DNA of 64,000 nucleotides from Escherichia coli (GTDB lineage Bacteria; Pseudomonadota; Gammaproteobacteria; Enterobacterales; Enterobacteriaceae): assembly GCF_003334305.1 (NCBI RefSeq), contig NZ_QOWS01000010.1; one strand, 5' to 3'. Positions 34,720 to 39,000 of the stretch are shown one piece after another; position 1 is the stretch's first letter; each line of letters opens with the position of its first letter. The position numbers were made by a program, and so were the translations under genes. The notes beneath the pieces were generated by a model. It was given only the letters and a program-made list of their open reading frames with translations, searched no databases and was not told the origin of the DNA.

Positions 34720-35097
34720 TCAGTGCTTTTCTTGCTTTTCATCAATCACCGGAATTCGCCACATATAGAAAAGCAAACAGGCGAGAATTACCAGCAACAT
34801 GATGCGCACCCATGGCATCTGGACGAACCACAGAGAAATGGCAAACGTGAGCAAAATAAGCAAAATCGCCCGCGGTTTGACGCCGCGCGGCATCGCATGA
34901 TGTTTCTGCCAGAAACGTAGATAGCTGCCAAACCATGAGCGGTACAGCAACCAGGCGTGAAAGCGCGGGGAAGAACGGGCAAAGCACCAGGCCGCCAGCA
35001 GGATAAACGGCGTCGTCGGTAATACCGGTAATACCACGCCCAGCGTACCCAGCACTACCGCCAGCCAGCCAATGATGATTAAAATGATTCGTTGCAT
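34720..35097 (-). CDS. ybaN: DUF454 inner membrane protein, 125 aa
   Basis: ORF track; hydrophobic, recognised YbaN sequence. Confidence 0.9.
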
Positions 35098-35166
35098 ATT
35101 GAGTGTTGTCAGCTTACAGAGTGGCTACTTTAGCATAACAATTATCATTTTCATTGAGGTCTTATC

Positions 35167-35694
35167 GTGAAAACCGCCCTGCTGCTGGAAAAACTGGAAG
35201 GACAGCTCGCTACGCTGCGTCAGCGTTGTGCCCCGGTAGCGCAATTTGCCACGCTAAGTGCCCGTTTTGACAGACACCTTTTTCAAACCCGTGCGACAAC
35301 ACTGCAGGCTTGTCTCGATGAGGCGGGCGATAATCTGGCTGCGCTTCGTCATGCAGTTGAGCAGCAACAGCTGCCGCAAGTGGCCTGGCTGGCGGAACAT
35401 CTGGCGGCACAACTGGAAGCCATCGCGCGTGAAGCCTCCGCCTGGTCATTGCGCGAGTGGGACAGTGCGCCACCGAAAATTGCCCGCTGGCAGCGTAAAC
35501 GTATTCAGCATCAGGATTTTGAGCGGCGGCTACGTGAGATGGTTGCCGAACGCAGAGCCCGCCTGGCGCGGGTGACCGATCTCGTGGAACAGCAAACGCT
35601 GCATCGTGAAGTGGAAGCCTATGAAGCGCGCCTGGCACGCTGCCGCCATGCGCTGGAAAAAATCGAAAACAGGCTAGCGCGCTTAACCCGCTAG
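35167..35694 (+). CDS. priC: Primosomal replication protein N'' (PriC), 175 aa
   Basis: ORF track (GTG start); recognised PriC sequence. Confidence 0.93.
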
Positions 35695-35707
35695 CAATGG
35701 AGAGAGT

Positions 35708-35869
35708 ATGTCACTGGAAAATGCCCCTGACGATGTCAAACTGGCTGTCGATTTGATTGTGCTGCTGGAAGAAAATCAGATCCCAGCCCGCACCGTGCTG
35801 CGCGCGCTGGATATTGTAAAACGCGATTATGAAAAGAAATTAACGCGCGATGATGAGGCGGAAAAGTGA
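35708..35869 (+). CDS. ybaM: Small protein YbaM (DUF2496), 53 aa
   Basis: Not in ORF track (<60 aa); ATG 35708 preceded by SD ggagag; translation [53 protein letters not shown]; 13 nt after the priC stop. Confidence 0.85.
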
Positions 35870-35922
35870 GAAATAAATGGGGCCGCTAAATGTCCCCTAA
35901 GATTGTGGGCAAACGCAAAACT

Positions 35923-36020
35923 GCCTGATGCGCTACGCTTATCAGGCCTACACCGCTCCTGCAATACATTGAATTCTTGCGGTTTCGTAGGCCGGATAAG
36001 GCGGTCACGCCGCATCCGGC
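35923..36020. repeat. BIME: two inverted REP units
   Basis: gcctgatgcgctacgcttatcaggcctac (35923-35951) and gtaggccggataaggcggtcacgccgcatccggc (35987-36020), between ybaM and the 3' end of mscK. Confidence 0.85.
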
Positions 36021-36080
36021 ATGAACAACGCGCACTTTGTCAGTAATCTCGGGGCAACTAAATGTCGCCCCCTTTGGTTA

Positions 36081-39000
36081 TTACCCTACCGCTGGCGTCG
36101 GGTCATCGCCTTTGTAGTCGCGTTTGACTTCCGTCACCTCATCGCCCTTCTCGTTGTGCAGATGCACTTCAAGCTGGTTAAAGGCAATGTTGATGTCGTT
36201 TTCACGGCACAGCTGATCGATAGTACGGTTCAGCTCATCGACAGTACGACTACGGTCACGCAGTTCACGCACATACAGACGCAGCTCATGATCCAACGTG
36301 CTGGCACCAAACGCCGTAAAGAAGACTTCCGGCATTGGTTCGTGCATCACCCTTGGGTGCTCAGTCGCCGCCTTCAGTAACACTTTACGCACTTTTTCCA
36401 GATCGGAGCCATAGGCCACGCCGAGACGGATCACCAGACGCGTAGTAGTGTCAGTCAACGACCAGTTGATCAGACGCTCGGTAACAAACGCTTTGTTCGG
36501 GATGATCACTTCTTTGCGATCGAAATCGGTAATCGTTGTCGCACGAATACGGATCTTACTTACCGTCCCCGAGAAGCTACCAATGGTTACCGTATCGCCA
36601 ATACGCACCGGACGTTCGAACAGAATGATCAAACCGGAGACGAAGTTACCGAAAATTTCTTGTAAACCAAAACCAAGACCTACGGATAATGCTGCGGCCA
36701 GCCACTGGAGTTTATCCCAAGAGACGCCCAGCGATCCGAACACCGTCATCGCACCAACGGCAATAATGATGTAGTTAAGGATGGTAGTAATGGCATACGA
36801 CGCGCCCTGACGCATATTCAGTCGCGAGAGCACCAGCACTTCCAGTAAACCAGGCAGGTTGCGAATCAACGCCCAGGCCACCATTGAGGCGATAATCGCA
36901 AACAACAGACTGCCCATGGTGACGTTTTTCACCACCGCAGCGCCAGCTTCAGTGCCGTTGTAATGCCAGAGCGTGATGCTGTCGAGATAGCTGAACACGG
37001 TGATCAAATCGGACCAAATTGCCCAGAACATGACACCGAACAGCGCAAACATCAGCAACATGGTAATACGCAGCGTCTGCTGGTTAACTTGCTCCAGTGC
37101 AATGGTGGGTTCTTCCGGCGGTTCGGCACCTTCTGCGCCCTCTTTCACCAGATTCTGCCGACGCGCCAGCGCACGACGCCAGGCGATACGCCGCGCCGCT
37201 ACGCTTAAGCCGCGCAATACCGTCTGGTAGAGCAAGTTCCAGATGATCACCAGATAAACGGTTTCAATCCAACGCCCGGAGAGGCGCAGCGTGGTGTAGA
37301 AATAACCCGTGGCAGTCAGCACCATCAATGCAATCGGGATAATCGACAGCACGGTAATGGTGACCAGTCGCATGGTGTGCGACTCTTTATCACGCCAGCT
37401 TTCGCGGCACATTGGCCATACCAGGAAGGCAATCAGCAGCAGGTTGAAGAAAATCATCGCCTGCCCCAGCACATCATCCATCAGATGCAGCGGGGAAAGT
37501 TCTGCCACCACAGACCAGAAATGGATAGGCAGCAACGCGAGACTGATGCGGACAATTTGCCGACGCCAGTGGCTGGTCTGCTGCTCCGGCATGCCGAAGT
37601 GACGCACGGCAACGCCATTTTTCTCCAGTACCTTCCAGCACAGGCCAAACACCAGCCAGAAAATCGCCAGTTTTTTACTGAACGACCATAGCAGTTCGCT
37701 GATGTTGAGCTGCATGGTCAACAGAATCAGGCCAACCGCGAGAATAATCAGGCACACCGGCAGCGCGCGGATCAGGTCGATAAGGATCGCTTTTGGTGTG
37801 TTGAGCTGGCTATCGTTACGCAGGGAACCCACAGCGGAAGCCAGTTTCTGTTGATACGCTTTCAGCCAGCCCAGACGCCAGTGGATCAGCCCGGCAATCA
37901 ACAGCAGCGGCAAACCGGCGAGGAAAGCGATAAAAACGGCAGGCCAGGCTTTTTCCCAGTTCACCGTGATTTTCATCGACTTAAATTCATCTTTCAGGCT
38001 TTGCGGGAACGCTTTGATCCAGTCCCAGTCCATTGGACGGTTACTGTTCACCCAAAAGATTTGCTGAGTCAGGATGGATTTCAGGTTTTTCGATACGCTC
38101 ATTAACTGCTGCTGGTTGATTTGCAGGTTAATGGCCATCATCAGCTGGTTACCCAACTGTTTGTTGAGTTGATCCAGCAATTCGCGACGCATATCAACCA
38201 CTTGCAATAACGCATCGTGAACTTCGCTGTTGACTTCGTTGGTGTGACCTTCTTCCAGTTTGTTGACGAACGCATCGCTCTGGAAGAGTGCATCACGCTG
38301 CTGGTTAACTTCAAACTGTTCGAGACGCAAATCCGCGATGCGGTTGGTCATGTTTTCCAGTTCATCCGCCGAGGGCAGCGTTTGTTGTTGCTGGTAAAGG
38401 ATACGAGACAACAGCAGGCTACCCTTCAGGACGGCAATCTGCTCTTTAATATTGCGTTCCGATTGCAGCGCCCGCTCCAGCCAGTTTTTGACTTTAATGT
38501 TTTGCTGCATCAACTGATTACCGTTTTCAGTCGCGGTAATCAGACGCTGACTTAACTGCTGGTTAATTTCCAGTTCCTGCTTCACCAGCGGATTAGCCTG
38601 AATACGCGCGGCTTCATCCGGGGAGACGGCTTCCTGCGCCGTTTTTTCGGTTAAAGTCAGGCGCTTGCTGTTTACCGCTTCTTGCAACAGTTGTAACTGG
38701 TGCTCCAGACGAGCGCTGTTCGCCGTCACGTAATCACGTTGCTTTTGCAAGGTATCCTGCAAGACGGTGTTCCCTTCCAGGCTTTTACGCTGCTGGTCAA
38801 TCTCCGCATTCAGCAACGCCTGCTGGGCCTGCATTAACACTTTCTGGCTGGGACGTAAGGCTGTCTCGCCGACATCAGTCCCATCCAGACGACTGCGAAT
38901 TTGTTGCAGCTGCTGCGAAGCGTTATACATCGCATTTTGCACGCGTTCGGGCTGCGTCTGTAACGAAACCAGCTGGCTGTTATAAGACGCCAGATCGTTT

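Follow-up and report, generated by a model that had tools for sequence, protein, structure and literature searches.

The window analysed here is a stretch of 64,000 nucleotides (nt) from Escherichia coli (RefSeq assembly GCF_003334305.1, contig NZ_QOWS01000010.1), and the locus in question is a short open reading frame (ORF) on its plus strand, 35708–35869, which runs from an ATG at 35708 to a TGA at 35867–35869 and encodes 53 amino acids (aa). A frame of this size raises the question of whether it is a gene at all and, if it is, what its product does. The original prediction had placed a 53-aa ORF at precisely this position and called it ybaM, and the start, the stop and the product are read from the sequence as it claimed. 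Virtually beyond doubt the frame is rsmS (ybaM, b0466), which codes for a small regulatory protein of the DUF2496 family. The best overall explanation, in which confidence is high, is that rsmS is a genuine gene and that its product is most likely a cofactor of CsrA (RsmA).

The identity of the frame was established by comparison with annotated genomes and with family models. A 501-nt query over the region was 100% identical to E. coli chromosomes, for example those of strains 120899 and M8, in which priC, rsmS and mscK are annotated. In RefSeq, the Prokaryotic Genome Annotation Pipeline labels the gene rsmS, 'pleiotropic regulatory protein RsmS' (WP_000051146.1), while the K-12 MG1655 record has ybaM (b0466, NP_414999.1), 'DUF2496 domain-containing protein YbaM'. 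The upstream gene and first gene of the operon is priC (35167–35694, plus strand, GTG start), encoding primosomal replication protein N''; its 175-aa ORF has the same length as RefSeq priC and lies inside the 100% DNA match. The window gene and K-12 ybaM share their chromosomal position (dnaX-apt-ybaN-priC-ybaM-mscK-acrR), and both have the same 3' allele type, containing a bacterial interspersed mosaic element (BIME). Both products have 53 aa, of which 52 are identical, the one difference being R28 in the window as compared with S28 in K-12, so that the window belongs to an E. coli strain other than K-12. The protein scored 94 bits against the NCBIfam equivalog NF008266 (curated cutoff 76, E 3.5e-27, profile positions 1–45 of 46), and its residues 2–44 matched the Pfam model PF10689 (DUF2496) over positions 1–43 of 43 with an i-Evalue of 4.1e-24. 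All 17 columns that are invariant in a 53-sequence alignment of the family are present in the window RsmS. The naming of the ORF as ybaM, 3' of priC, is hence borne out by RefSeq and K-12 annotation, family models and synteny. The gene is an already known one: it is annotated, named, included in curated family libraries, published and partly characterised, and no new kind of element is suggested. The prediction also described it as missed; this is plausible for a length-limited ORF track, as the frame is unlisted at the default ORF threshold of 60 aa, but it does not hold for genome annotation, where the gene stands as b0466 ybaM or rsmS.

The ATG lies 13 nt past the priC stop codon (TAG, 35692–35694), exactly as predicted. 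A Shine-Dalgarno (SD) sequence GGAGAG was read off the plus strand at 35699–35704, with the GGAG core at 35699–35702. The spacing to the ATG is 5 nt from the core and 3 nt from the full GGAGAG; the motif itself is where it was predicted, while the 7 nt given for the spacing fits only if counted inside the motif.

Conservation of the frame was assessed both within and outside E. coli. Of 5426 complete E. coli genomes, 5425 carry the gene with its SD sequence, each as a single copy, and it was annotated as rsmS in every row sampled. A search for relatives with one genome per species gave matches in 301 genomes, and 80 loci from outside E. coli were retained for analysis; they cover Escherichia, Citrobacter, Salmonella, Klebsiella, Raoultella, Enterobacter, Erwinia, Pantoea, Tatumella and Pectobacterium. 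An ATG-started open frame was kept in all 80, with a length of 48–64 aa in 79 of them and 103 aa in one. When the E. coli reference locus was added to the set, about 79 of the 81 loci scored had an SD core no shorter than 4 nt (GGAG, AGGA or more) 4–9 nt before the start, the exceptions being one locus without an SD core and one with AGGA abutting the ATG. Apart from the SD sequence, the 20-nt upstream strings seemed poorly conserved, as judged by eye only.

Selection was measured by Nei-Gojobori counts on the ungapped core (codons 1–44) in all pairs of sequences. In the annotated frame, the pooled proportions of non-synonymous (pN) and synonymous (pS) differences were 0.141 and 0.609, respectively, which gives a pN/pS ratio of 0.23. 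The corresponding values were 0.256, 0.218 and 1.17 in frame +1 and 0.285, 0.110 and 2.59 in frame +2. The median pairwise ratio of non-synonymous to synonymous substitution rates (dN/dS) in the annotated frame was 0.14. Third codon positions were variable in 43 of 44 columns and had an entropy of 1.19, as compared with 0.44 for first and 0.24 for second positions. Particularly, the core of E. albertii differs from that of the window rsmS by seven synonymous changes and no non-synonymous one. Purifying selection on the amino-acid sequence of RsmS is strong and frame-specific and, in combination with the variation at third positions, shows that conservation acts at the level of the amino-acid sequence. 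The check proposed in the original prediction, conservation of the frame with a synonymous bias, was therefore positive, and the loss of the frame in related genomes, named there as grounds for rejection, was not seen in any of the 80 loci.

These data bear directly on the possibility that the ORF is a functionless chance reading frame. A length of 53 codons is by itself within chance expectation for 64 kb, and many spurious ORFs of similar or greater length occur nearby; hence the frame is taken as real because it is conserved and not because of its length. Against a chance origin stand the conservation, the selection, the match to family models and the genetic evidence described below (PMC6418279), and the probability left to it is negligible. 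A 62-aa ATG ORF on the minus strand (35827–36015), which lies antisense to the 3' end of rsmS and crosses the BIME, passes the 60-aa cutoff; it is almost certainly spurious because it is mostly made of repeat sequence. The cutoff is therefore misleading in both directions, hiding a real conserved regulator and listing a spurious antisense ORF.

Two of the retained loci have irregular features. In Citrobacter amalonaticus (locus L047, 2501–2812), the normal stop of rsmS is lost and the 103-aa frame reads through into sequence resembling a repetitive extragenic palindrome (REP) (..LMALRLSGLH..VGRIRRKQRHQAG..); the extension is probably a sequencing error or a strain-specific frameshift. Locus L051 is a 320-bp contig labelled Pseudomonas yangonensis MY50 that bears rsmS of the Enterobacter type together with the end of priC, and it is most likely a contamination of the Pseudomonas assembly.

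It may also be asked whether the region acts as RNA, the ORF being incidental to a priC 3' untranslated region in which the BIME and hairpins stabilise the transcript or titrate CsrA, and the phenotypes then being due to the RNA. The fold of the BIME region is indeed very stable (–45 kcal/mol, z –4.2), the entire rsmS region served for the published complementation with no translation-dead control alongside it, and the half-life of ybaM mRNA is reported to depend on CsrA, being shorter in an E. coli csrA mutant according to work cited in Monson et al. (PMC6418279). However, selection specific to one frame and variation dominated by third positions are at odds with such a role. Furthermore, the BIME is missing from roughly one in four E. 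coli genomes and the 3' repeats of other genera are unrelated, whereas the coding core is invariant, and no Rfam family overlaps the ORF in the segment searched (35000–36300). An RNA function in place of the protein is accordingly considered very improbable.

The product was predicted to be acidic and helical. It is acidic, with 13 Asp and Glu as compared with 9 Lys and Arg residues, a pI of 4.62 and a mass of 6.09 kDa. The helical character agrees with a model obtained with AlphaFold2 (AF2) from the 53-sequence alignment, which confidently predicts a hairpin of helices 8–22 and 27–52 with a mean predicted local distance difference test score of 90 and a predicted template modelling score of 0.62. 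The conserved core comprises residues 1–45 (DUF2496), with two amphipathic helices and a nearly invariant MSLENAP motif at the N terminus. Invariant throughout the alignment are M1, L3, A6, K11–I17 (KLAVDLI), L20, E21, L31, A33, L34, D40 and K44. The family is narrow, with 264 clusters at 50% identity among 1.84 billion representatives, almost all of them stand-alone proteins of 44–100 aa; in its distant members, short N-terminal extensions precede a retained LxxAPxx[VI][KQ]LAVDLI...ALE[IL]V core. A sequence search of the Protein Data Bank (PDB) with RsmS gave no match up to E 1, a Foldseek comparison of the AF2 model with the PDB gave no match and no informative fold relative, and the PADLOC defence models gave no match.

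Beyond about residue 45 both the length and the sequence of RsmS vary. The window and K-12 proteins end in ..DDEAEK* (53 aa; window 35850–35869), while those of E. albertii and other Escherichia (L002, L003–L007) end in ..DDEAQSEK* (55 aa), the difference being due to a 1-nt insertion and nearby substitutions that put an earlier stop in frame. The C-terminal tail is evidently unconstrained. In five Enterobacter loci (L038, L044, L055, L060 and L068), the tails are Pro/Gly-rich from codon 45 onwards (for example, PHPALSPEGRG and CPHPNPLPQGEGK) and are encoded by a palindromic repeat, CCCTCACCC..CCCTCTCCC..GGGAGAGGG, that invaded the 3' end of rsmS.

The function of RsmS has been approached genetically in other genera. 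In Pectobacterium atrosepticum and P. carotovorum, Monson et al. (2019) found that transposon insertions in rsmS (ECA1172) suppress an rsmB mutant; a priC insertion acts through polarity on rsmS, and rsmS on a plasmid complements (PMC6418279). Single rsmS mutants over-produce exoenzymes and the quorum signal and are hypervirulent, over-expression of rsmS has an effect in the same direction as its deletion, and an rsmS mutation also bypasses the virulence defect of relA/spoT (PMC6418279). In Serratia, Campa et al. (2021) observed that an rsmS mutation raises the expression of three CRISPR-Cas systems, with rsmA epistatic to rsmS, and that the action of rsmS is independent of rsmB and additive with pigX/csrD (PMC8450108). 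For E. coli, a yeast two-hybrid interaction between YbaM and CsrA, a single and unvalidated report, is cited in Monson et al., and the same paper cites a competitive defect of a ybaM mutant under envelope stress, complementation of which needed the priC promoter (PMC6418279). The Keio deletion of ybaM is listed among E. coli mutants with altered curli (PMC5745457). The literature thus places RsmS in the Rsm/Csr pathway genetically, in Pectobacterium and Serratia; direct binding to CsrA, the adaptor mechanism and the same role in E. coli are inferred. The direct interaction of RsmS with CsrA stated in PMC8450108 leans on PMC6418279, which only proposes it from the two-hybrid hit, and is less established than the chain of citations suggests.

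In the mechanism proposed, rsmS would be co-transcribed with priC from a promoter upstream of priC, and RsmS would be translated from its own GGAG Shine-Dalgarno sequence. The 6.1-kDa acidic helical hairpin would then bind CsrA and make it act more effectively on its target mRNAs, without involvement of the CsrB/RsmB sponge RNA. If RsmS supports CsrA in this way, its loss should therefore partly phenocopy a loss of CsrA activity. A scan for promoters and terminators found, at the stringency of the tool, nothing promoter-like on the plus strand upstream of either priC or rsmS, and its matches were no more than in shuffled sequence; this outcome neither supports nor contradicts the priC-rsmS operon model. 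Taken by itself, the cofactor mechanism is given an even chance. Several points weigh against it: direct binding to CsrA rests on the one two-hybrid result cited in Monson et al., and a simple cofactor explains neither the non-monotonic dose response, in which loss and excess act alike, nor the very deep linkage to priC.

RsmS might instead belong to the Rsm/Csr pathway without being a direct cofactor of CsrA, by altering the abundance or stability of CsrA or by a parallel input through ppGpp or quorum sensing. Monson et al. list such alternatives as open, and the bypass of the relA/spoT virulence defect, the changed levels of OHHL, the quorum signal N-(3-oxohexanoyl)-homoserine lactone, in rsmS mutants (PMC6418279) and the single two-hybrid report that stands behind direct binding are all in keeping with an indirect action. 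However, the Serratia epistasis, with rsmA over rsmS, independence of rsmB and additivity with pigX, puts RsmS at or very near RsmA (PMC8450108), and the exoenzyme phenotypes are not explained by exogenous OHHL (PMC6418279). An indirect action is consequently regarded as possible, though less probable than the cofactor mechanism.

The dose response and the priC linkage, which the cofactor model leaves unexplained, give room for a bridging adaptor or for a connection with PriC. As an adaptor, RsmS would act stoichiometrically, maybe as a dimeric four-helix bundle, with the MSLENAP motif docking on CsrA and a second partner linked to it. A hook effect would then explain why loss and excess give the same phenotype, and the linkage to priC would tie Csr-controlled physiology to the status of replication restart. 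Such an adaptor is an unlikely, speculative solution.

The linkage itself is extensive. priC and rsmS (priC-ybaM) are described as one operon both in PMC6418279 and in a review of replication restart (PMC5778457), and priC was found directly upstream of rsmS in most of the 80 loci, with a gap of 10–19 nt in Enterobacteriaceae. In a distant DUF2496 member (L086, 1–625; GCA_002836415.1), there is an 8-nt overlap between priC and the DUF2496 gene; since even this locus keeps the association, the linkage is judged to be ancient. The association is not strictly universal. In two Erwiniaceae loci from Winslowiella and Erwinia (L035, 2244–2489, and L074, 2219–2464), an 81-aa predicted membrane protein with a weak, below-cutoff match to NF007771/PRK10457 is encoded between priC and rsmS, and a TetR/AcrR-like gene is present downstream of rsmS rather than mscK. 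Because of the intervening ORF, the published statement that the gene is always immediately downstream of priC does not strictly hold. Another distant member, on a metagenomic contig (L088, 1550–2029), has a ComFB-domain gene upstream in place of priC.

Conservation of a gene pair across Enterobacterales, and as deep as in the distant overlapping locus, often signifies functional coupling, and RsmS could accordingly work with PriC in replication restart or DNA maintenance, the Csr-related phenotypes being indirect. Yet the Pectobacterium phenotype was complemented by rsmS and not by priC in trans (PMC6418279), the synthetic lethality of priC303::kan with dnaA was complemented by priC alone, without ybaM (PMC539235), and the linkage is broken in the Erwiniaceae and by the ComFB gene. 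A role as a partner of PriC is therefore doubtful, with about the same low probability as the bridging adaptor. The cofactor mechanism remains the preferred account of how RsmS acts.

The region downstream of rsmS was predicted to contain a BIME, and this was confirmed. The spacer between the convergent genes rsmS and mscK is 211 nt long (35870–36080) and holds two REP-type palindromes in inverted orientation. REP unit 1 (TGCCTGATGCGCTACGCTTATCAGGCCTAC) is located at 35922–35951, as seen from inverted repeats I1 and I3, and the inverted REP unit 2 (GTAGGCCGGATAAGGCGGTCACGCCGCATCCGGCA) at 35987–36021, as seen from inverted repeats I1–I3; the arms are 85–93% complementary. In the Rfam search over 35000–36300, both units matched the REP-derived family naRNA4 below threshold, unit 2 with 35.4 bits and E 2.7e-4. 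A query of the gene with the spacer matched a median of 18 places per E. coli genome, as compared with one place for the gene alone. A further REP palindrome pair, GCCGGATGCGGCG / GCCGGATAAGGCG, occurs in the window at 17414–17443 and belongs to one family with the unit at 35991–36020. The K-12 record lists no repeat features at this position.

On either side of the REP pair is a copy of a GGGGC..CTAAATGTC.CCCC hairpin, the two being in direct orientation. The left copy (GGGGCCGCTAAATGTCCCC, 35879–35897) is degenerate relative to the right one, is followed by a T-rich run on the minus strand and folds weakly (–6.7 and –6.9 kcal/mol, z –0.8 and –1.5). The right copy (GGGGCAACTAAATGTCGCCCC, 36051–36071) adjoins the mscK stop codon (36081–36083, minus strand), has a stable fold on either strand (–15.5 and –17.7 kcal/mol, z –3.6 and –4.2) and is likely a terminator element common to the convergent rsmS and mscK genes.

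The BIME is polymorphic within E. coli. The junction of the window type was present in 4059 of the 5426 complete genomes (about 75%), whereas 1346 (about 25%) have a BIME-less spacer of 38 nt (L083 and L084, 779–816), made up of a single strong hairpin, a bidirectional terminator (–21 kcal/mol, z –5.3). The right bracket hairpin of the BIME allele aligns with this single hairpin, and insertion of the BIME seems to have duplicated the local terminator hairpin. RsmS of the BIME-less alleles has 54 aa and a different tail. One Escherichia genome (L004, about 2660–2900) has a different GC-rich insert of the CCCTCACCC/GGGTGAGGG type between the same two brackets, which suggests that the rsmS-mscK spacer is a recurrent insertion hot spot.

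The locus can be compared with known systems at the level of both its repeats and its protein. Like known BIMEs, the element downstream of rsmS is an inverted REP pair between convergent genes, is multi-copy and has a sub-threshold match to naRNA4; it differs in being a presence/absence polymorphism within E. coli and in being bracketed by copies of a terminator hairpin. The founding member of the protein family, Pectobacterium RsmS (ECA1172), is an orthologue of the window protein, with the same DUF2496 core, a position downstream of priC in one operon and a small acidic product of ~6 kDa. Proteins from three loci of other Pectobacterium species are 62–69% identical to the window RsmS. The priC-rsmS spacer is longer in Pectobacterium, at 35–37 nt as compared with 13 nt in the window, and the C-terminal tail is different. 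Moreover, the phenotypes described in Pectobacterium (plant cell-wall-degrading enzymes, OHHL and carbapenem) are specific to phytopathogens, while the outputs in E. coli have been barely studied.

RsmS (YbaM) is one of the few protein modulators proposed for CsrA, a master post-transcriptional regulator. FliW of Bacillus subtilis and CesT of enteropathogenic E. coli are protein partners of CsrA that modulate it by direct binding rather than as a sponge RNA, as is proposed for RsmS. Both are larger than RsmS, have folds unrelated to it and antagonise CsrA, and neither the PDB sequence search nor Foldseek revealed a relation in sequence or fold between them and RsmS. RsmS differs from them in being a 53-aa predicted helical hairpin and in the direction of its effect, as the genetics indicate that it supports the activity of CsrA/RsmA.
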